DNA from: Methanobacteriota archaeon
GTDB taxonomy: Archaea > Thermoplasmatota > Thermoplasmata > SG8-5 > DAIRED01
Length of the DNA stretch: 64,000 nt
Assembly: GCA_043799545.1 (NCBI GenBank)
Contig: JAZDNO010000006.1
Coordinates: 3,413 to 67,412, forward strand
Reading direction: 5' to 3'
Of this stretch, positions 1-61,574 are shown one piece after another; the stretch's first letter is position 1, and each line of letters opens with the position of its first letter. The notes under the pieces were generated by a model. That model saw only the letters and a list, made by a program, of their open reading frames with translations, did no database searches and had not been told where the DNA came from. A program made the position numbers and the translations under genes.

Positions 1-62
1 AAGCTTCTGGGTCGACACTCTCGGAGAGATAAACCCCGTGGCGGGGTGACGGAGGCGTAAAA

Positions 63-773
63 ATGAAGCAAATGGACAAGTACAGGATGATTGCGGGAGC
101 GTTGCTCTTTGGCTCGATTTGGGGCATGCTCGAATGCGTGCTGGGGAGCATGAAGATGCCGTCGGGCTTCGAATCCTTCCCCCTGGGCGCCGTATTGGGC
201 GGCCTGTTCGGATTCGGCATAATGGCGTACACCCGGCGCATCTACGGCGTGATGTGGATGCAGCTCGGCATGGGCGTCGTGGCGGGCTTCCTCCGCTTCT
301 GGGCGCCCATAGGAACGTGCGTCGTCTGCTCTGCGCTGGCCATAGTCGCCGAGAGCCTGGTGTTCGAGTTGATATTCAACCGTCCTGCGCTGTCGATAAG
401 GGGATTTGCGGCAGAAGGCGCTGAGGGTAAGAGCCGCGCAGCCGCCATCACCCTCGTGCCGCTCGGTTTCATCGCAGCCTATGCGATTTACGTCACGGGA
501 TATGTCTTCACGCAGGTTATGACGCCCGTAATCACCGGTTCTGGCTTCGTAATGTCGGATTTCGCCTCGGTGCTTCCTCTGATAATCGGGCGAGGACTTT
601 TCGCAGCGCTATGCGGAGCAGTGGCTCTTCCGTTTGCAGTTCTGGTAAGGCAGCTTGACATCGAAGTGACGAAGGTCGCGGTTGCGAAGTACTATGCCGG
701 AGCGCTGGTAGGTTCCGTGATGTGCTGGGGTATTGTCCTCGCGCTCTTCCTGCCGAGGCTGCTGGGGCAGTGA
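63..773 (+). CDS. polytopic membrane protein, ~6 TM helices, function unknown; first gene of the AOR operon
   Basis: 236 aa with several hydrophobic helices and no recognisable motif. Coupled 9 nt upstream of the ferredoxin gene. Confidence 0.45.
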   Translation: MKQMDKYRMIAGALLFGSIWGMLECVLGSMKMPSGFESFPLGAVLGGLFGFGIMAYTRRIYGVMWMQLGMGVVAGFLRFWAPIGTCVVCSALAIVAESLVFELIFNRPALSIRGFAAEGAEGKSRAAAITLVPLGFIAAYAIYVTGYVFTQVMTPVITGSGFVMSDFASVLPLIIGRGLFAALCGAVALPFAVLVRQLDIEVTKVAVAKYYAGALVGSVMCWGIVLALFLPRLLGQ

Positions 774-782
774 GGTGGCACA

Positions 783-1235
783 ATGACGAAGGTCAAGGTG
801 CTCGTTTTCCATCCAGAGAAGTGCAAAGGCGACCTGGAATGCGAGAAGGCGTGCTCGAAAGTGCATTTCAAGACCGAAGACGGCGGCGTCAAGTCGGCGA
901 TACGGATTACCAAGGGGGACGATGGTAAGTTCCGGGCGACTATGTGCAACCACTGCGGATTGTGCATCGACCTTTGCCCCGTCCAAGCCCTGAAGCGGCT
1001 GGGCAGCGGGATCGTGACTCTTAACAAGAACGCTTGCGTCGGCTGCCAGGCCTGCGTGGGGTTCTGTCCCTCGGAGGTCATGCGGAAGGCACCGGGCGTG
1101 ATAGTTCCGTTCAAGTGCATCTCCTGCGGGATGTGCGTCAGGGCCTGCCCCGAGAAAGCGCTGGAACTGAAGGAATTCGAACTATCCGATATCGAGCGCG
1201 AGGTCTATGCCAGACATGGGAAGGTGTGCAAATGA
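783..1235 (+). CDS. 4Fe-4S polyferredoxin with three clusters; likely electron-transfer partner of AOR (YdhY-like)
   Basis: Three CxxCxxCxxxCP motifs: CNHCGLCIDLCP, CVGCQACVGFCP, CISCGMCVRACP. Stop codon overlaps the AOR start in ATGA. Confidence 0.85.
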   Translation: MTKVKVLVFHPEKCKGDLECEKACSKVHFKTEDGGVKSAIRITKGDDGKFRATMCNHCGLCIDLCPVQALKRLGSGIVTLNKNACVGCQACVGFCPSEVMRKAPGVIVPFKCISCGMCVRACPEKALELKEFELSDIEREVYARHGKVCK

Positions 1236-3580
1236 ACGGCCCGGAGAGCATCGTAGACTGCAACTACAAGCCCGTAACCCTGAAAACGGAGAAGGGGTTC
1301 GAGACCGGCAACACGAAGCATCAATGGGACCTCAAGAAGATGCGGGAGAGCCATCGGATTCTGGCCGAGATGAAATACGAGCGGCGCCCGGTAGCAAGGG
1401 GCTACGCCGGACGCACTCTTTACATAAGTCTCTCGAAGAACGAAATAAAAGAGAAGCCCGTGTCGGAGGAAATGAAAAACCAGTTCACGGGGGGCAAGGG
1501 ATTCGACCTCAAGCTGCTTTACGATGCCATCAAGCCCTCGACACGGTGGGACAGCGAGGAAAACGAGCTTGTGATGGCGGCGGGCCCTCTCTGCGGAACC
1601 ACGCAATACTCTGGAATGGGGAAATGCCTGGCAGTGACGATATCGCCCCTCACAAACGTCGTCTGCGATTCGAACGCCGGAGGGTATTTCGCTCCGTATC
1701 TGAAGTTCGCTGGCTTCGATGCGATTGAGATACAGGGGAAGGCCAAGGAAGATGTCGCGATAATCGTTGACGGCCGCGAAGGGGTCGTGAGAATCGAGAC
1801 TGCCCCGCTTGAAGAGGTCAACGCACATCTGGTGGCAGAGCAGCTCACGTACATGTACGCAGCCGAAGACACGGACGTCGAGCGCCAGAAGGTGGCCGTC
1901 GTATCCGCAGGGCGCGGCTCGGAGCACTCATATTGGGGCTGCCTGAACATATCGTTCTTCGACCCGCGTCGCAAGGTGGCCAGGCTGAAGCAGCACGGCC
2001 GCGGCGGCCTGGGGACTGTATTCCGCAACAAGAAGATCAAGGCTCTGGTCGCCAGAATCGAGAAGTTCGACGGCACATCCAACGACCCAGCCGACCCGGA
2101 CAGGCTCGCGGCAACGGGATTGAAGCATCACAGGGAGATGCGCGACCTGGACAGGGACCAGTGCAACATGCGCGTCGTGGGCACTGGCAACATCGTAGAG
2201 GTGATGGACGCCTATGACCTCTTGCCGACTGAGAACTACAGGTTCGGCTCCCATCCCAAAGCAGCGAACCTTCACTCGCCGCAGTTCTACAAGCGGTTCA
2301 CCCAGGTCATACCCGACGGATGCTGGTACGGCTGCACGATGGCCTGCGCCAAGGTCGTGGACGGCTTCGAGGTGATGACCGGGCCGTACAAAGGGATGAA
2401 GTTCTCGGTCGACGGACCCGAATACGAGAACTCTGGCGGATGCGCCAACATGGGGCTATGGGACCCAGACTGGGTCATAGAGTGGAACTTCTACTGCGAC
2501 TGTTACGGGATAGACACGATATCGTTCGCGACTGGCATGGCTTACTACATGGAAATGTACGAGTACGGAATCCTGACCAAGGAGCGCTGCGGCGGCCTGG
2601 AGCTAGTATGGGGCAACGGCGAGGCGATATTGGAGTTCATGCACAGGATAGCACGCGGCGACACAAACGAATTCATCCAAACCGGGGCAAAGGGAATCCG
2701 CAGGACGAAGGACTGGCTGCTATCCAAAGGATGGGGGGACCCTTACTTCATCGAGAACTGCGGGATGGAGAACAAGGGGCTCGAGTTCTCGGAGTACGTG
2801 TGCAAGGAGTCGCTCGCCCAGCAAGGCGGATACGGCCTCACGAACAAGGGGCCCCAGCACGACGAGGCATGGCTCATCTTCATGGACATGGTCAATAAAC
2901 AGATACCGACCTTCGCCGACAAGGCGGAGGCGCTCCACTACTTCCCGATGTGGCGAACGTGGTTCGGCCTTGTGGGACTGTGCAAGCTCCCTTGGAACGA
3001 CGTTACGCCGCCGTCCAACGCCAAGGCGAAGGAGCCGGCCAAGATACCGGAGCACGTCCAGAACTACGCCGACATGCTGAGCGGTACCGTGGGCAAGGAG
3101 TTCAAGCCCGCCGACCTCATCGCTCAGAGCGAGAGGGTGTACAACTTCCAGCGCTCGATGAACGTCTGGATGGGCCGCGGCACACGCAAGGACGACAAGA
3201 TGCCCTTCAGGGCGCTCGGGCCAGTCACCGAGATGGAATACCTCTCCAGAAAGGACCGGTACGACAAGCAGCTAGCCGAGATAATCGGCGTACCTAAGGA
3301 GAGATTATCCAAGATGATAACTCGCGACAAGCTCGCGCTCCTGAAGGAATACCGCATCGACCAGTATGAGAAGCTCACTGACGCTGTGTACCACAGACGC
3401 GGTTGGACCCCGAACGGGATTCCGACGCCGGAGAAGATGAAATCCCTGGGCTTCGCGGACGAGCGGCTGCTCGGCACGCTCCAGAAGAAGATTGAAGCTG
3501 ACGAGAAGGCTGGCCTGAACAAATGGGGCGGCAAATACAAGGGCGATGAGAAACCGCCGGGTGTAAAGGGGACCCGTTGA
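1232..3580 (+). CDS. aor: aldehyde:ferredoxin oxidoreductase family protein, tungsten bis-pyranopterin enzyme; long YdhV-like variant of ~782 aa
   Basis: N-terminal AOR domain signature YAGRTLYISL...QFTGGKGFDLKLLYD. Fe-S ligand cluster CWYGCTMAC. ATG at 1232 overlaps the ferredoxin stop; the longest ORF from 1034 lies inside the ferredoxin gene. Confidence 0.85.
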   Translation: MNGPESIVDCNYKPVTLKTEKGFETGNTKHQWDLKKMRESHRILAEMKYERRPVARGYAGRTLYISLSKNEIKEKPVSEEMKNQFTGGKGFDLKLLYDAIKPSTRWDSEENELVMAAGPLCGTTQYSGMGKCLAVTISPLTNVVCDSNAGGYFAPYLKFAGFDAIEIQGKAKEDVAIIVDGREGVVRIETAPLEEVNAHLVAEQLTYMYAAEDTDVERQKVAVVSAGRGSEHSYWGCLNISFFDPRRKVARLKQHGRGGLGTVFRNKKIKALVARIEKFDGTSNDPADPDRLAATGLKHHREMRDLDRDQCNMRVVGTGNIVEVMDAYDLLPTENYRFGSHPKAANLHSPQFYKRFTQVIPDGCWYGCTMACAKVVDGFEVMTGPYKGMKFSVDGPEYENSGGCANMGLWDPDWVIEWNFYCDCYGIDTISFATGMAYYMEMYEYGILTKERCGGLELVWGNGEAILEFMHRIARGDTNEFIQTGAKGIRRTKDWLLSKGWGDPYFIENCGMENKGLEFSEYVCKESLAQQGGYGLTNKGPQHDEAWLIFMDMVNKQIPTFADKAEALHYFPMWRTWFGLVGLCKLPWNDVTPPSNAKAKEPAKIPEHVQNYADMLSGTVGKEFKPADLIAQSERVYNFQRSMNVWMGRGTRKDDKMPFRALGPVTEMEYLSRKDRYDKQLAEIIGVPKERLSKMITRDKLALLKEYRIDQYEKLTDAVYHRRGWTPNGIPTPEKMKSLGFADERLLGTLQKKIEADEKAGLNKWGGKYKGDEKPPGVKGTR

Positions 3581-3588
3581 CCGCCCGC

Positions 3589-4461
3589 ATGAACAAATTA
3601 TCGATGGTCTCCTACCTGGCGTACCTCGAGATTAAGCGAAAAGTACGAGGCGCGAGATACTTCGCCGAGGTCGACGTCACGGACAATTGCAACCTGAGGT
3701 GCGCCCATTGCTACCATTTCCACGGCAAGGAGGATTTTGAAAAGGCCGAGCTGCCGCTGGAGGCGTGGGCGCAACGATTCGAAGCGCTGCATGGCGAAGG
3801 CGTCCGTTTCGTCCTGTTGGTCGGCGGGGAGCCAGCGCTGAGGAACGACGTTCTTATGCTCGCCCACAGGACGTTCCCATTCGTTTACGTGATAACGAAT
3901 GGCACGATTCCTATTCCCAAGGAGTTCGACCACCTGTTGTTTGTATCGCTGGACGGACTGGAGAAGACCAACGATTCGATACGAGGCGCTGGCACATTTT
4001 CCAGAGTCCTGAAAAATTACTCCGGGGATCCAAGGGTCGCCATCAACATGACCGTCACCATGGGCAACCACAAAGAGCTGGAAGATGTCGTCGAGCTATC
4101 GAAGGAGCACGGCTTCAGGGGGGCCGTGTGCAACATCTGCGCAACCGGGACCGACAGGGCCATCCCACTGGCCATCAAGAAGGGCGAGCGGAAGCAGATT
4201 GTCGACGAGCTGAGGCGGGTGAAGAAGGCCCATCCGAGGCACTTCCTGCTTAGCCCGAAGATGCTTGACTGGTACGAGAAGGCGGACCATAGGGGGCGGT
4301 GCTACTGGGGCGACGATGTGCGGCATTTCGATGTCTCGTGGAACACGAGGAGGTGCTTCGGAACGAATGCGGACTGCTCCAACTGCGGCTGCCTGGCGGG
4401 CTCTTTCCAGAACCCGCTGGCGATGGCGCTCAGCCCGAGGGAGTTCGTCCATCTGGTTTGA
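3589..4461 (+). CDS. radical SAM protein, Cmo-like tungsten-cofactor oxidoreductase maturase, with C-terminal Cys-rich SPASM/twitch-like region
   Basis: CxxxCxxC motif DNCNLRCAHCY. C-terminal segment CFGTNADCSNCGCLAG. Sits immediately downstream of aor, as the radical-SAM cmo does in Pyrococcus. Confidence 0.7.
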   Translation: MNKLSMVSYLAYLEIKRKVRGARYFAEVDVTDNCNLRCAHCYHFHGKEDFEKAELPLEAWAQRFEALHGEGVRFVLLVGGEPALRNDVLMLAHRTFPFVYVITNGTIPIPKEFDHLLFVSLDGLEKTNDSIRGAGTFSRVLKNYSGDPRVAINMTVTMGNHKELEDVVELSKEHGFRGAVCNICATGTDRAIPLAIKKGERKQIVDELRRVKKAHPRHFLLSPKMLDWYEKADHRGRCYWGDDVRHFDVSWNTRRCFGTNADCSNCGCLAGSFQNPLAMALSPREFVHLV

Positions 4462-44647: not shown

Positions 44648-44700
44648 GTTTTGCTGAAGTTGAAACTATACTTTCAAGTTTCGCGCGAAAGTTGAAAATA
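44648..44700. promoter_or_regulatory. cluster of palindromes upstream of the GIY-YIG gene: TTGAAACTATACTTTCAA (44660..44677), GTTTCGCGCGAAAG (44678..44691), and a second TTGAAA at 44692
   Basis: Perfect 6-N6-6 inverted repeat and a TTCGCGCGAA palindrome, read directly in an AT-rich spacer. Confidence 0.45.
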
Positions 44701-44784
44701 TGATGTTGACTTTCCCATAATTATTAGATGGAGCGGACGAAACAATTATTACATGGAACTTGTTTCTTCACGTTGGTGTAGGTT

Positions 44785-45636
44785 ATGATTGGCGTAGCTA
44801 AATTGCTTGGAATTGAGGAGTTCGTAGAGAATATCAAAGTACACATGGCTACGGAGCCGGGGGATGCCTACAGGCCATTGAAAGAATATGAAGCAGGGAT
44901 AGAATCTTTCAAGAAATGGCAGGACTACCAAGGCAACGATATCTTCAAGAGGAAATATGTAGCTTCGTTCGTCCAATATCGTAAGAACGTCTGGTTGTTT
45001 GTCGGGGTCTGGGAGATTAAGGGTTTCGTTAATAAACCACGCGATAAGGATGCAGGGGATTGGGCTAATCCGGGAGCCAAGATACGTTATAATTCTTCCC
45101 TCACGAGTTACGGGAAGGATTTGGTCGGACGCTTGCTCATAGACTGGGTGCGCACCCAACGAGACCGAAATTCATACCGGAACGGTGAGAATTTTTTCCA
45201 TCAATTAGGTGTGAAATACATCAAAGAGAAGAAGCATGAAACATCCGAATACCCAGGTCCCGATGATGTTCACCTTACGCACTCAGAACTCACGACTATT
45301 GTCGATAAAGAGGTGGAGTCTTGGAAAGTTTCCTTGTCCTATCTAAAAGGAGTCTATTTAATAATGGACAATAAAACGGGCAAAGGTTACGTTGGTAGCG
45401 CTACAGGCGAGGATTATCTCTGGCAGAGATGGTGTCAATATGCAAAAACGGGGCATGGTGGCAACAAGCTACTGGTGCGCCTTTTAAAAAAGGAGGGCGA
45501 TGACTACGCTGACAACTTTACGTTTTCTCTATTACAGGTCTTCAACCCCTCTGTTGATGATAACGTTGTGATTGAGCGTGAAAGTTTCTGGAAGAGTGTT
45601 TTACTCACACGAGATTTCGGGTATAACGACAATTGA
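44785..45636 (+). CDS. GIY-YIG nuclease-domain protein (C-terminal ~100 aa) with ~185-aa N-terminal domain of unknown function; lies in an AT-rich island
   Basis: GIY-YIG elements GVYLIMD ... GYVGSA ... QRW ... GHGGN ... IERESFW ... GYN. GC content is well below that of the flanks. Confidence 0.6.
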   Translation: MIGVAKLLGIEEFVENIKVHMATEPGDAYRPLKEYEAGIESFKKWQDYQGNDIFKRKYVASFVQYRKNVWLFVGVWEIKGFVNKPRDKDAGDWANPGAKIRYNSSLTSYGKDLVGRLLIDWVRTQRDRNSYRNGENFFHQLGVKYIKEKKHETSEYPGPDDVHLTHSELTTIVDKEVESWKVSLSYLKGVYLIMDNKTGKGYVGSATGEDYLWQRWCQYAKTGHGGNKLLVRLLKKEGDDYADNFTFSLLQVFNPSVDDNVVIERESFWKSVLLTRDFGYNDN

Positions 45637-45742
45637 CACGAGGTTATTATAATCGAACAGCATAAAAGAAAGTATACGCTGGATTTTGTTATCATTACCT
45701 ATTTATACAAGCTTGCCTTCGAAGGACTGCTCTTTTCGAAGA

Positions 45743-57464: not shown

Positions 57465-58391
57465 ATGTTCAATTTTCTCAAAGAGAAGCTCGGGCTGATA
57501 AAAAACGAGGCTTCTGCGGACAAAGATCTCATAGTCGAGCAGGGCGGCTTTTGGTCTATCAAGGAGTCGAAACTCGAGGATGTCCTGTGGGCGCTGGAAG
57601 TATCGCTGATGGAGGCCGACGTAGCCGTCGAGGTGATAGCCGAGATAAAGGACAGCCTCAAGAAGGAGCTGGTGGGAAAGAAGCTGGCATGGGGGGCGAA
57701 CATCGGGGAGGCGGTCGAGGGCGCGCTTCGCAAGAGCGTCACGTCGCTGCTGTCCCGGCAAAGCTTCGATTTCGATCAGTTCGTCGCCGGGCACGCCCGG
57801 CCAGTCGTGGTGATGTTCGTCGGGGTGAACGGGACGGGCAAAACGACGGCCATCGCGAAGGTGGCCAATCGGCTGAAATCTCAGAAGATGGGATGCGTTT
57901 TGGCCGCCGGTGACACGTTCCGCGCCGGGGCGATAGAGCAGCTCTCGCTCCACGCCGACAAGCTAGGGGTCAAGGTAATCAAGCACTTGGCCGGCAGCGA
58001 CCCGGCTGCGGTGGCCTACGACGCCATAGAGCACGCCCGCGCCAGGAACAAGGACATCGTTTTGATTGATACGGCGGGCAGGATGCAGACGAACGCGAAC
58101 CTGATGGACGAGCTGAAGAAGGTCAAGCGCGTGGCCGAGCCCCATCTCGTAATATTCGTAGGAGACTCTCTCGCGGGAAACGACGCCATAGAGCAGGCGA
58201 AGGCGTTCGATGCGGCGGTGGGAATAAACGCGGTCATACTCACGAAAATCGACGCGGACTCCAAAGGCGGCGCCGCGCTGAGCATCGCGCACGCCATCAG
58301 GAAGCCCATCGCGTTCGTCTCCACGGGCCAGGAATACGACCAGTTCCAGAAGTTCGACGCGGAGTGGATGGCGAAGAGGATATTCGAGTGA
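57465..58391 (+). CDS. ftsY: signal recognition particle receptor FtsY
   Basis: SRP GTPase motifs VVMFVGVNGTGKTTAIAKVA, DTAGR, TKID. Confidence 0.9.
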   Translation: MFNFLKEKLGLIKNEASADKDLIVEQGGFWSIKESKLEDVLWALEVSLMEADVAVEVIAEIKDSLKKELVGKKLAWGANIGEAVEGALRKSVTSLLSRQSFDFDQFVAGHARPVVVMFVGVNGTGKTTAIAKVANRLKSQKMGCVLAAGDTFRAGAIEQLSLHADKLGVKVIKHLAGSDPAAVAYDAIEHARARNKDIVLIDTAGRMQTNANLMDELKKVKRVAEPHLVIFVGDSLAGNDAIEQAKAFDAAVGINAVILTKIDADSKGGAALSIAHAIRKPIAFVSTGQEYDQFQKFDAEWMAKRIFE

Positions 58392-58394
58392 TAC

Positions 58395-60701
58395 TTATTT
58401 CTTAGTGGCTTTTATCCTAGCGCAAACTGGACACCAGGTTCCATTATTTTTAATACTGCTTGGTCTTGCTTCCCAAGTATGTCCTTTATTGCACATCCAT
58501 TTTATCTTAGTATTATTGTTCAGATATTTGTCTGAAACACATCGCCCTCCTCGTTTTTGTGCAATTTCTTTCATTAACTCTATGTTTAACCTTTGGGATG
58601 CTCCTTTCTTCGATTGTGCACATATAGGGCACCATTGCCCCCTTTGAATATGACCTGGTGTATTCTCCCATTCATGACCGAAACCACAGCGCCATTTTAA
58701 CTTTGTTTTAGAATTAACATATCGTTTGGATAGACACATACCTCCGCAATTCTCTGCAATTCGTTGCATATGGTCTATTGTTTTGCCACGGCCAACACAA
58801 AAAGGGCACCAGTGGCCTTGCCTAACTGTTGATGGTCGAGCTAAGAATATATGCCCTTCTTTACATCTCCATTTCAATTTAGTTGATGAATTAAAATATT
58901 TTGGTGATATGCATTTTCCACCTTTCAATATTGCTAATTTCTCCATATCTTCAATCGACGGCCGTTGTGCATCAATTACCTTTTTGCGACTACAAATGTG
59001 ACACCAATGGCCTTTTGCTATTGATGTAGGTACTGCCAACCATTCATGGCCTTCACTACATTTCCATTTCAATTTAGTTGAAGAATTGATATATGCCTGA
59101 GATTGACAAATTCCATTCTTCACCGAAGCCAATTTATTCATATCTTCTATTGTTTTTCCATAGCCAACGCAATAGGGGCACCAATGACCCATGAAAATGC
59201 TTGCCGGGGGGGCCTCCCAAATGTGCCCATCTTTGCATTTCCATTTTAATTTGACATTACTTTTAATATATTTTTCCGAGAGACAATCTCCTCCTTTATT
59301 TTTCGCATATTCTCTCATATCTTCTATTGTTTTATGGCGTCCGACACAATAAGGGCACCAGCTCCGTCGCTTCACGTGAATTGGCATGGCTGACCAAATA
59401 TGGCCCTCTTTACATTTCCAATCTAATGCAGTATGGCTGTTTATATATACTTTTGAAAGGCAGGTCCCACCCCTTTCGCTCGCTATTTGTCTCATTTCAT
59501 TTATCTTGTTTGGCTTATAAATATTGAAAGATTTGTAATTATAAATATCTAAATTGTTAATGGTAAATTTCAAGTCTCTATTTTTGCACTGGTTGATGAT
59601 AAATTCCGCCATTTTATCGAATTCAATATCGTATGGTACTTCTATTAAAGCGATGTTATGTTTCACACATAACTCTCTTTTTACTTGGTCCCTCATCTGC
59701 CTTTCTATTAACGATTCCTTCTGATCAAAAAACTTCTTAGTTTTATAATGTTGCACTCCAGAATATTCAAAAGCTATGCCTAGTTCTTTGCAGTAACCAT
59801 CTAATTCCATTTTATTGCCCGTCTTTGGATTTATCAACCAGGATGGTTTTATCCTTGGAAACTCCTTTTTGAAAAGTCGTTGAAAGATCTCTCGACATAT
59901 TTTCTCGCTCACGCCAGTTTTACATACTGGACACCATTGTCCTTTTTTAATATTACTAACTATATTTACCCACGAGTGCCCCTCGCTACATTGCCATTTT
60001 AAAGGAGTTCGATTACTGGAATATTTGCTGGATAGTAATAGTCCACCTCTTGCTTTGGCAAGGTCTTGAATATCCTTAATGCGTAATCTTTGTCTGTCGG
60101 TATTGCGTTCTATAGCGCAAGTAGGACACCATTGACCACGTTTTACACTATGTGGCGCCATATAAAACGTATGTCCTTTTTTACAACGCCATAATAACTT
60201 TAAAAAGGCATCACCACATTTTTTTGATAGGCAAGTACCACTCCGTTCGGCAGCAATTGTACGAAGATCTATTATATCGGTTCGGGCTTTGCCAGCACAA
60301 CGTGGACACCAAGAACCTTGGTCCTTCACACTATTGACACTGGCACTCCACTCGTGCCCTTTTGAACACTTCCACTTATATCTATTTCCACTGCGTGTAT
60401 AAACTAAAGATAAAAACTCTCCACCTCTGTCTTTAGCTAATTTCTGAATATCCTCAATTTTTAACCTACTTCGATTTGCATTGTTTATGTTACGACATAT
60501 AGGACACCAGTGACCTTGAACTAATGAGCTCGGAACAGCTGACCACTCATGACCACATTTGCATTGCCACTTCAATTTTGAATGCATATCAATATATCTT
60601 TCAGATAAACATTTACCGTCATGATTGGCAGCGTAAGTTCTCATATCCTCAATCGTTTTTTTCTTATTCATAGGCAAAGAACCATATCTGGGACCAATCA
60701 C
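58395..60701 (-). CDS. 768-aa protein with ~11 tandem zinc-ribbon repeats (K-W-x-C-x2-G-H-x-W ... G-x-W-C-P-x-C) flanking an embedded DUF559/Vsr-like PD-(D/E)xK nuclease domain; AT-rich island
   Basis: Repeats such as KLKWKCSEGHEWLAVPTSIAKGHWCHIC. Central domain ELDGYCKELGIAFEYSGVQHY matches the VDF-x-IE-DG-QH core of DUF559/Vsr-like endonucleases. GC content far below the flanks. Confidence 0.65.
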   Translation of the reverse strand: MIGPRYGSLPMNKKKTIEDMRTYAANHDGKCLSERYIDMHSKLKWQCKCGHEWSAVPSSLVQGHWCPICRNINNANRSRLKIEDIQKLAKDRGGEFLSLVYTRSGNRYKWKCSKGHEWSASVNSVKDQGSWCPRCAGKARTDIIDLRTIAAERSGTCLSKKCGDAFLKLLWRCKKGHTFYMAPHSVKRGQWCPTCAIERNTDRQRLRIKDIQDLAKARGGLLLSSKYSSNRTPLKWQCSEGHSWVNIVSNIKKGQWCPVCKTGVSEKICREIFQRLFKKEFPRIKPSWLINPKTGNKMELDGYCKELGIAFEYSGVQHYKTKKFFDQKESLIERQMRDQVKRELCVKHNIALIEVPYDIEFDKMAEFIINQCKNRDLKFTINNLDIYNYKSFNIYKPNKINEMRQIASERGGTCLSKVYINSHTALDWKCKEGHIWSAMPIHVKRRSWCPYCVGRHKTIEDMREYAKNKGGDCLSEKYIKSNVKLKWKCKDGHIWEAPPASIFMGHWCPYCVGYGKTIEDMNKLASVKNGICQSQAYINSSTKLKWKCSEGHEWLAVPTSIAKGHWCHICSRKKVIDAQRPSIEDMEKLAILKGGKCISPKYFNSSTKLKWRCKEGHIFLARPSTVRQGHWCPFCVGRGKTIDHMQRIAENCGGMCLSKRYVNSKTKLKWRCGFGHEWENTPGHIQRGQWCPICAQSKKGASQRLNIELMKEIAQKRGGRCVSDKYLNNNTKIKWMCNKGHTWEARPSSIKNNGTWCPVCARIKATKK

Positions 60702-60725
60702 AAATAATTTACCCGACGTGGGGGA

Positions 60726-61574
60726 CTAATCGTCGAACCCTTCCCCGTACACCTTTCTCGGCAGCCCGTCGTGTATCCATCGCACACCCTCCTCGTCCAG
60801 CAGCCCCTTCTCCAGAAGCATCTTCGTTCTGCGAGGAACCGTCGCCGGGCCAAGGACCGCCCCCGGCCTGCGCGGGTCGTCCATGTAGTCCGTCTCCAGC
60901 AGGAAATCGCGCCCTTGCTTCGCCGCTTCCTGGGCGTTCCTATCGCTCGCAAGCACCGAGGGCGTTAAACCGAAGTTCTGTTCACGCGTGATGTGGGGTG
61001 GCGCGAAGTGCTTGACGACCCGCTCCCTGGCAAGTCCCGCTTTATCGGCCATCAAGGCCAGCTCCTCCCAGACCTTCGCTGTCGCGCTCTCGCAATGGAT
61101 TACCACGGCGCAACCCTCTCCCTTTGCCACGCTCATTGCGTATGCCATGACGTCGTTCGACGCGTCCATCACGGGCTGTTCGACAGGAAAGTGGGGGCGC
61201 CCGACCTCGCCGATGGCCAGCGCCTTTCCCTCCGCGATGTACTCTGCCGCGAGGTCCATCCCCTCCATCATCAGGGCCTTCGCCTCAGCGAGGGGCACCT
61301 TCTCCATCATCTCCATCATCTCGACCGGGTAAGGCCCGAGGGTGCAATGGCAGCGCATGCCCGTTTCCGCCCGCACCTTGCGCGCCATCTCCACGGTTCT
61401 GTCGTACCCCTCTCTGAAATCGAAGTTGCGGACGATTGGAATGTCGTGGTAAGGCATGTGAGAGAGGATGATGCGCGTGCCGCCGGCGCGCTTGAACTCC
61501 TCGACAGCCGCCACGTGGCGCCCGGATGGCTGGAGATGCATGTGGTTGTCGAGTATCGGAACCGCATCGCTCAT
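60726..61574 (-). CDS. TatD-family metal-dependent hydrolase / deoxyribonuclease
   Basis: N-terminal DNHMHL; His/Glu/Asp ligands in a TIM-barrel pattern (EVGRP, VVIHCE). Confidence 0.65.
   Translation of the reverse strand: MSDAVPILDNHMHLQPSGRHVAAVEEFKRAGGTRIILSHMPYHDIPIVRNFDFREGYDRTVEMARKVRAETGMRCHCTLGPYPVEMMEMMEKVPLAEAKALMMEGMDLAAEYIAEGKALAIGEVGRPHFPVEQPVMDASNDVMAYAMSVAKGEGCAVVIHCESATAKVWEELALMADKAGLARERVVKHFAPPHITREQNFGLTPSVLASDRNAQEAAKQGRDFLLETDYMDDPRRPGAVLGPATVPRRTKMLLEKGLLDEEGVRWIHDGLPRKVYGEGFDD

Follow-up and report, generated by a model that had tools for sequence, protein, structure and literature searches.

What is a large AT-rich gene doing in the gap between two housekeeping genes of an archaeal chromosome, and how did it get there? 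The gene lies in a 64,000-nucleotide stretch of a Methanobacteriota archaeon of the GTDB lineage Thermoplasmatota (GenBank assembly GCA_043799545.1, contig JAZDNO010000006.1, positions 3,413 to 67,412; hereafter, the window). It occupies a low-GC island between the convergent genes ftsY and tatD and encodes ten zinc-finger units with a nuclease domain embedded between the fourth and the fifth. The most economical reading, towards which we lean on balance, sees in the island a selfish gene of the homing-endonuclease-like, free-standing type, recently arrived at the ftsY/tatD junction.

A foreign island at the ftsY/tatD junction

The island, its gene, and its boundaries are as follows; L001 and L089 are the related loci described below.

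57465..58391, plus strand: ftsY, host gene and left boundary, 88% and 83% identical to FtsY of L001 and L089, respectively
58392..60725, no strand: low-GC foreign island of 2,334 bp, the entire space between the convergent ftsY and tatD stop codons
58395..60671, minus strand: coding sequence of the zinc-finger-array nuclease, 758 amino acids (aa) from the ATG at 60669-60671, as judged from the list of open reading frames (ORFs), the start-region sequence, and the NCBI entry P0001
60702..60711, minus strand: A/T-rich TAAATTATTT box, ~30 to 40 nt 5' of the ATG, read directly from the sequence
60726..61574, minus strand: TatD-like hydrolase gene, host gene and right boundary, 81% and 78% identical in L001 and L089, respectively

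The nuclease gene is located directly downstream of the tatD-like gene, on the same strand, and its other end is separated by 3 nt from the ftsY stop codon. Its GC content is 38%, compared with 59% for the remainder of the window; in 100-nt windows, the values range from 0.23 to 0.49 within the island and from 0.55 to 0.68 outside it. The GC content of third codon positions (GC3) is 0.32 in the nuclease gene versus 0.77 to 0.81 in ftsY, tatD, and other neighbors. These data agree with the first-pass annotation, made from the sequence alone, which had described an AT-rich gene with GC far below that of its neighbors and a 3-nt gap to ftsY.

The island ends show no terminal direct or inverted repeats and no target-site duplication. 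No Rfam family and no tRNA were found at the island, and the ORF list of the window includes no integrase or transposase. A transposon or integrative element can be rejected on these grounds, and an intron-borne gene can be rejected given the lack of an Rfam match. The island is of foreign origin and contains no other mobility machinery; its insertion point is the only noncoding position between the two convergent housekeeping genes. Nothing interrupts the 2.3-kb ORF, and each of the ten zinc sites is intact. Since the GC3 remains un-ameliorated and the ORF and all of its motifs are preserved, the acquisition appears to be recent.

The longest ORF (58395-60701, minus strand) starts with a GTG at 60701 and encodes 768 aa, as listed in the first-pass annotation. 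The NCBI entry P0001 ([quoted passage not shown]) is 100% identical to it and starts at M11, which makes a 758-aa protein; its contig is 222,880 bp long. The TAAATTATTT box might be an archaeal TATA-like promoter element brought along by the island. As this box lies 30 to 40 nt upstream of the ATG, 58395-60671 is the preferred coding sequence.

The last codons of ftsY (GAGGATATTCGAG, 58376-58388) are complementary to positions 60065-60076 and 60446-60455 (10 to 12 nt, 92 to 100%), and the DNA complementary to GAGGATATTCGAG encodes the recurrent I-E-D-I/M motif of the zinc-finger units. This complementarity is the sole similarity between the flanks and the island and is probably due to chance.

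Zinc-finger units

In the 768-aa numbering, the units form two arrays, which were delineated by a motif scan, unit alignment, and Pfam.

59913..60665, minus strand: N-terminal array of four ~60-aa DUF4379/CapR units, aa 13 to 263
58413..59516, minus strand: C-terminal array of six ~60-aa DUF4379/CapR units, aa 396 to 763, with an in-frame periodicity of 177/195 nt

Each unit consists of a helix (T-I-E-D-M-x3-A-x2-R-G-G-x-C-L-S) followed by a treble-clef finger (W-x-C-x2-G-H-x-W ... W-C-P-x-C). An alignment of 56 units from the window protein and related proteins has five invariant columns, G17, C35, H39, C54, and C57, and the zinc site has the form C-x3-H...C-x2-C. The Pfam domain DUF4379 matches the protein in 10 stretches (E=1.8e-52, 175.8 bits versus a cut-off of 24.5), and the CapR homology domain (PF21817) matches it in 5 stretches (E=1.6e-17, 63.9 bits versus 24.2). 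The DUF4379-type repeat recognized in the first-pass annotation is thereby confirmed, but its “about eleven” units of ~45 aa turn out to be ten units with a start-to-start spacing of 59 to 65 aa.

The mean pairwise identity of the units within the window protein is 44%, and Tandem Repeats Finder detects no tandem repeat at the DNA level, leaving only the in-frame periodicity. An artifact of recent tandem duplication can be rejected on both counts, and the units look old, judging from their sequences. Their order in the window protein is not positionally collinear with that in its closest homologues. A TALE-like di-residue code is also rejected, as the variability within the unit is spread over many positions.

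One relative of these units is a DNA-binding domain. The PLE satellite of Vibrio cholerae encodes the 15.5-kDa repressor CapR, described as a domesticated DNA-binding domain of a homing endonuclease; it binds its operator in an electrophoretic mobility shift assay, and the C43/46/72/74S mutant loses this binding (PMC8096241). The same domain forms the N termini of T5orf172-type putative homing endonucleases of phages ICP1 and T5 (PMC8096241). By analogy with the zinc-dependent CapR domain, the ten units of the window protein would bind DNA, in line with the modular DNA-recognition array proposed in the first-pass annotation. In addition, the array aligns, with 25 to 31% identity, with ORFs of T5-like, Listeria, Bacillus, and other phages, which are annotated as endonuclease, HNH endonuclease, GIY-YIG nuclease, or homing endonuclease.

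Central nuclease domain

As predicted in the first-pass annotation, a domain of ~130 aa is located between units 4 and 5.

59517..59912, minus strand: central Vsr/EDxHD-like PD-(D/E)xK domain, aa 264 to 395, with the candidate catalytic residues E266, D301, E312, H318, D338, and K341

An alignment of 33 homologues (A1) shows six invariant residues, E6, D41 (in ELDG), E52 (in AFEY), H58 (in QH), D78, and K81, which are the six listed above in the numbering of the full-length protein. The E/D/E/H/D residues are found on the expected elements, namely, helix 1, strand 2, strand 3, a loop, and helix 2. The domain has the Vsr-type PD-(D/E)xK catalytic fold, with RAP domains, Hjc, VRR-NUC, AbaSI, and many restriction enzymes as lower-ranked fold matches. 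Its layout D...E-x2-G-x2-H...D-x2-K/R resembles what we take to be the DUF559 (PF04480) pattern.

The EDxHD motif was defined in the homing endonuclease I-Bth0305I, where E170, D196, H213, and D222 correspond to E25, D51, H69, and D97 of Vsr and where the family has an additional acidic residue, likewise conserved, in the place of F62 of Vsr (PMC3239194). The composite motif E...D...(acidic)...H...D is present in the central domain, and the distance from D to H, 17 residues, is the same as in I-Bth0305I. Based on this spacing and on the secondary structure and topology, the conserved residues are likely to be equivalent to the EDxHD set.

This kinship holds only at the level of the fold and the catalytic motif. 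In hmmscan searches, the isolated central domain matched no Pfam family at E ≤ 10; with the whole protein as the query, only DUF4379 and CapR were above the Pfam threshold, and comparison with the sequences in PDB gave no relevant match. Neither DUF559 nor Vsr (PF03852) reached its Pfam gathering threshold. A bridge through a phage relative retrieved only subthreshold Pfam matches, DUF2726 and TnsA_N, both from the PD-(D/E)xK clan. The lack of detectable sequence homology to I-Bth0305I or Vsr is consistent with the status of a “distant outgroup” described in PMC12350094. Thus, of the DUF559/Vsr-like PD-(D/E)xK nuclease postulated in the first-pass annotation, the fold and the catalytic motif stand, with the E/D/E/H/D residues intact, while DUF559 family membership fails because there is no Pfam family at E=10 and no match to a PDB sequence.

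The empty site in relatives

The ftsY loci chosen for comparison included 80 from GTDB genomes and 80 from metagenomes; in none of these 160 related loci is this nuclease gene found near ftsY. The convergent arrangement of ftsY and tatD is common to three members of the immediate clade, the window, L089 (metagenome contig Ga0315268_10162275), and L001 (Thermoplasmatota metagenome-assembled genome CTOTU11644). In L089, the stop codons of the two genes are 3 nt apart (TGA-CGC-TCA; junction sequence GAGGATATTCGAGTGACGCTCATCCTACGATGAACGC), and the GC content is uniformly high. This is the empty site that the first-pass annotation had suggested looking for, at exactly the same junction. The homology of the window to its relatives stops at the ftsY stop codon (58391) and restarts at the tatD stop codon (60726-60730; 60730 for L001). 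With FtsY 83% identical, the lineage with the gene and the one with the empty allele differ at the species level, so the two alleles do not belong to a single population. As in EDxHD homing endonuclease genes (HEGs), a free-standing gene is accompanied by a gene-less allele at a defined site. The horizontal acquisition proposed in the first-pass annotation is supported by this empty site, the absence of the gene from all 160 related loci, and the deviant GC3.

In L001, the same junction contains a different island of 2,046 bp (L001 945-2990), with 30 to 37% GC and two unrelated ORFs:

L001 959-1870, minus strand: 303-aa multi-transmembrane protein
L001 1981-2898, minus strand: 305-aa protein with about six CxxC pairs

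Searches of Pfam, PADLOC, and PHROG assigned neither protein to a family. The window and L001 islands have no sequence in common, and the latter is likewise devoid of terminal repeats and target-site duplication. The ftsY/tatD slot is therefore found in three states within one small clade: empty, with the nuclease gene, and with the L001 cassette. An order-wide hotspot downstream of ftsY can be rejected, as a low-GC island right after this gene is seen in only 2 of 123 related loci.

The only other GC drop of at least 15 points among these 123 loci is found in L014, where the GC content falls from 0.50 to 0.33 ~1 to 1.75 kb downstream of ftsY.

Family, distribution, and genomic contexts

At E ≤ 1e-5, a search with the full-length protein retrieves more than 1,365 relatives. 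Except for the identical P0001, none of the 120 listed relatives is more than 50% identical to the window protein. They come from Thermoplasmata, Woesearchaeota/Nanoarchaeota, Scalindua, the Bacillus cereus group, Paenibacillus, Lysinibacillus, and many metagenomes. Among 1.84 billion representatives, the profile of the nuclease domain matches 29,861 clusters (50% identity) at E ≤ 1e-3, a number that falls to 9,006 at E ≤ 1e-10. This domain is present in 118 of the 120 listed full-length relatives and, of the 150 profile representatives listed, in 146 (it is not detectable in the other 4). It is nearly always single and embedded, and the embedded layout accounts for 117/118 and 122/146 proteins, respectively. 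The arrays that surround it vary from 0 to 8 N-terminal and from 0 to 12 C-terminal units.

The family is associated throughout with endonuclease genes of phages and giant viruses. The protein matches PHROG 559 (E=8e-106) and PHROG 681 (E=2.6e-91) very strongly. Among the matching PHROG families are those named “HNH endonuclease,” “endonuclease,” “homing endonuclease,” or “intron encoded nuclease,” and there are free-standing phage relatives annotated as HEGs. Foldseek searches against viral models find the nuclease domain in giant-virus proteins (30 to 40% identity, TM-scores of 0.7 to 0.8) that are named zinc-ribbon/treble-clef protein or “restriction endonuclease”; more distant matches are phage proteins named VSR endonuclease, homing endonuclease, or DUF559. 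A scan of IMG/VR with exact-word patterns from the whole protein found no relative, but these patterns were too strict.

No partner gene recurs in the contexts of six homologues, which bears out the lack of obvious partners noted in the first-pass annotation. One archaeal homologue is located between thrS and a GNAT gene, and one in Bacillus thuringiensis lies within an ANT/resolvase/integrase element. Of the remaining four, one is found beside a resolvase and an MTES_1575 helicase and another near an IS110 transposase, and two are surrounded by hypothetical genes. In the locus L172 (positions 1-3730), the neighbor of the homologue P0064 is a 1,289-aa helicase containing MTES_1575 and RAP (Vsr-like) domains, and a resolvase is found close by. 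Two different Vsr-fold proteins are thus adjacent in a region resembling a mobile element.

Comparison with known systems

The closest parallel is found in HEGs carried by phage introns of groups I and II, which encode an EDxHD/Vsr-like domain of ~100 aa preceded by three to five ~60-aa domains with a distant relationship to CapR, DUF4379, and DUF723 (PMC12350094; Nucleic Acids Research, 2025). That study noted thousands of unannotated relatives, a large unrecognized outgroup of EDxHD HEGs. In the literature collection searched, no other paper on EDxHD enzymes characterizes the zinc-finger/Vsr-like family. The intron HEGs and the window protein share ~60-aa CapR/DUF4379-related units and a nuclease domain of ~100 to 130 aa with a distant EDxHD/Vsr affinity, and the domain combination is therefore already known. 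However, the intron-encoded proteins have 3 to 5 units and a C-terminal nuclease and reside inside phage introns, whereas the window protein has 10 units with the nuclease embedded (4 + 6), and its free-standing gene lies between convergent housekeeping genes of an archaeal chromosome, where an empty site is documented for a relative. New at this locus are the embedded 4 + 6 layout of ten units, the free-standing setting in an archaeal chromosome, the exact boundaries, and the empty-site allele.

I-Bth0305I, the prototype EDxHD homing endonuclease (PDB 3R3P; PMC3239194), shares with the window protein the E/D/(acidic)/H/D residues with their D-to-H spacing and the combination of a modular DNA-binding region with a nuclease. 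It has two NUMOD/helix-turn-helix motifs in place of zinc fingers and a C-terminal nuclease, is encoded by an intron in phage recA, and shows no detectable sequence similarity to the window protein. Vsr is a repair enzyme with its own zinc site and mismatch-intercalating residues, which the central domain appears to lack, and the window gene is not in a repair context. CapR and the ICP1 and T5 enzymes share the PF21817 match, with two Cys/His knuckles separated by ~15 to 26 residues, but CapR is a single-domain repressor without a nuclease, and in the phage enzymes the module is joined to a T5orf172/GIY-YIG nuclease, not a Vsr-like one. The Lausannevirus and Insectomime virus proteins contain 4 DUF4379 units and a restriction-endonuclease domain (PMC5513546). 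More generally, proteins from Mimiviridae, Marseilleviridae, and Pithoviridae have nuclease domains 30 to 40% identical to that of the window protein but belong to viruses of eukaryotes and have fewer units.

Selfish gene, defense, or remnant

If the gene is a homing-type element, its two zinc-finger arrays, by analogy with CapR, would bind a long DNA site on both sides of the scissile position and would put the central nuclease over the intervening DNA. There, D301, E312, and D338 would hold Mg2+, and H318 would act as the general base, as in Vsr. The nuclease might nick the DNA or cut both strands as a dimer, like I-Bth0305I; alternatively, two nicking events might be involved. In a cell with both alleles, the break would be repaired from the gene-carrying allele, and the empty site would thereby acquire a copy of the gene. 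DNA binding by the units, the target site, the double-strand cleavage, and homing as such are the conjectural parts of this scheme.

Several observations weigh against this scheme. No member of the zinc-finger/Vsr-like family has been demonstrated to cleave DNA or to home. The 33-sequence profile, searched against all PDB sequences, retrieved neither 3R3P nor 1CW0 at E ≤ 10, the search of PDB with a phage intermediate gave no match, and hhalign of the domain profile with Escherichia coli Vsr gave a probability of 0.4%, with a single-sequence template that is too weak for this purpose. The unrelated L001 cassette at the same site is not predicted by site-specific homing and fits a permissive or variable slot equally well. 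The closest homologue is just ~50% identical, and identical copies of two homologues are found in one neighborhood each and so provide no direct sign of recent movement. Finally, homing requires two alleles per cell, a situation undocumented for this uncultured lineage.

The three states of the slot among close relatives, typical of variable or defense hotspots, might instead indicate a single-gene defense nuclease. The arrays would then recognize invading (e.g., modified or viral) DNA and the Vsr-like domain would destroy it, as in type IV/modification-dependent restriction enzymes, with the ftsY/tatD junction serving as a variable slot that exchanges defense cargos. The annotation of giant-virus homologues as “restriction endonuclease” (PMC5513546) and the presence of a single gene with intact catalytic residues would fit this explanation. 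However, none of the defense families in PADLOC-DB 2.0 matches the window protein at E ≤ 1, PADLOC does not recognize the L001 cassette either, and there is no methyltransferase or other partner. Further, low-GC islands after ftsY are confined to 2 of the 123 loci, and the relatives in phages, giant viruses, and phage introns (PMC12350094) are typical of selfish nucleases. A defense function therefore appears rather unlikely, and a selfish, homing-type gene is favored over it.

Homing endonuclease genes are expected to lose activity after fixation, and the window gene might be a domesticated or decaying remnant, a former selfish nuclease that now works as a DNA-binding regulator or is functionless cargo. 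CapR provides the precedent for such use of this DNA-binding module (PMC8096241). Yet the five EDxHD-type residues and the ten zinc sites have all been kept, the 2.3-kb ORF has no interruptions, and the wholly un-ameliorated GC3 points to a recent arrival and not to long residence, all of which makes a remnant quite improbable. Even less probable, to the point of being far-fetched, is an RNA-directed role, in which the Vsr-like domain would work in the manner of the organellar RAP/FASTK domains and structured RNA would be the ligand of the DUF4379 units, as it is in mitoribosome assembly factors of trypanosomes. The acidic and His residues that are catalytic in the DNA-cleaving Vsr/EDxHD enzymes are invariant here, and a foreign single-gene island with endonuclease-annotated relatives in phages and giant viruses fits selfishness at the DNA level. 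A small share of the probability goes to readings other than these four.

The locus offers a clean example of a very large nuclease family: one gene with exact boundaries and intact catalytic and zinc sites, plus an empty-site allele that nominates the ftsY/tatD stop-codon junction as the candidate target. It also indicates that free-standing nuclease genes colonize the chromosomes of uncultured Thermoplasmata-type archaea. The biology is otherwise ordinary, as the domain combination has already been noted in phage introns and giant viruses. It is tempting, though unlikely, that the ~60-aa units form a modular DNA-reading array, with a few base pairs per unit and with the number and order of units freely reshuffled around the central nuclease. 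If so, the family would represent a “zinc-finger nuclease” scaffold that occurs naturally and in great abundance, has bipartite targets of great length, and might be reprogrammable like TALE or C2H2 arrays; it would also be a seventh-type homing system active in archaeal chromosomes. A ten-unit array that reads DNA in this way could be of interest to genome engineers.

Other low-GC regions of the window

A second low-GC island (44650-45700; GC content of 0.35 to 0.52 versus ~0.6, GC3 of 0.50) is located between a radical-SAM gene and an rpl7ae-like gene and contains one ORF:

44785-45636, plus strand: 283-aa GIY-YIG-like protein with a C-terminal match to PF01541 (E=4.8e-4, just below the threshold)

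This protein matches PHROG 26160 (E=3.7e-51) and PHROG 314, “homing endonuclease” (E=8.5e-9), so that the window probably harbors two selfish nuclease genes of the free-standing kind. The segment 30843-32348 (plus strand), with ~45% GC, encodes a 501-aa multi-transmembrane protein without a Pfam assignment, possibly also an acquired gene.

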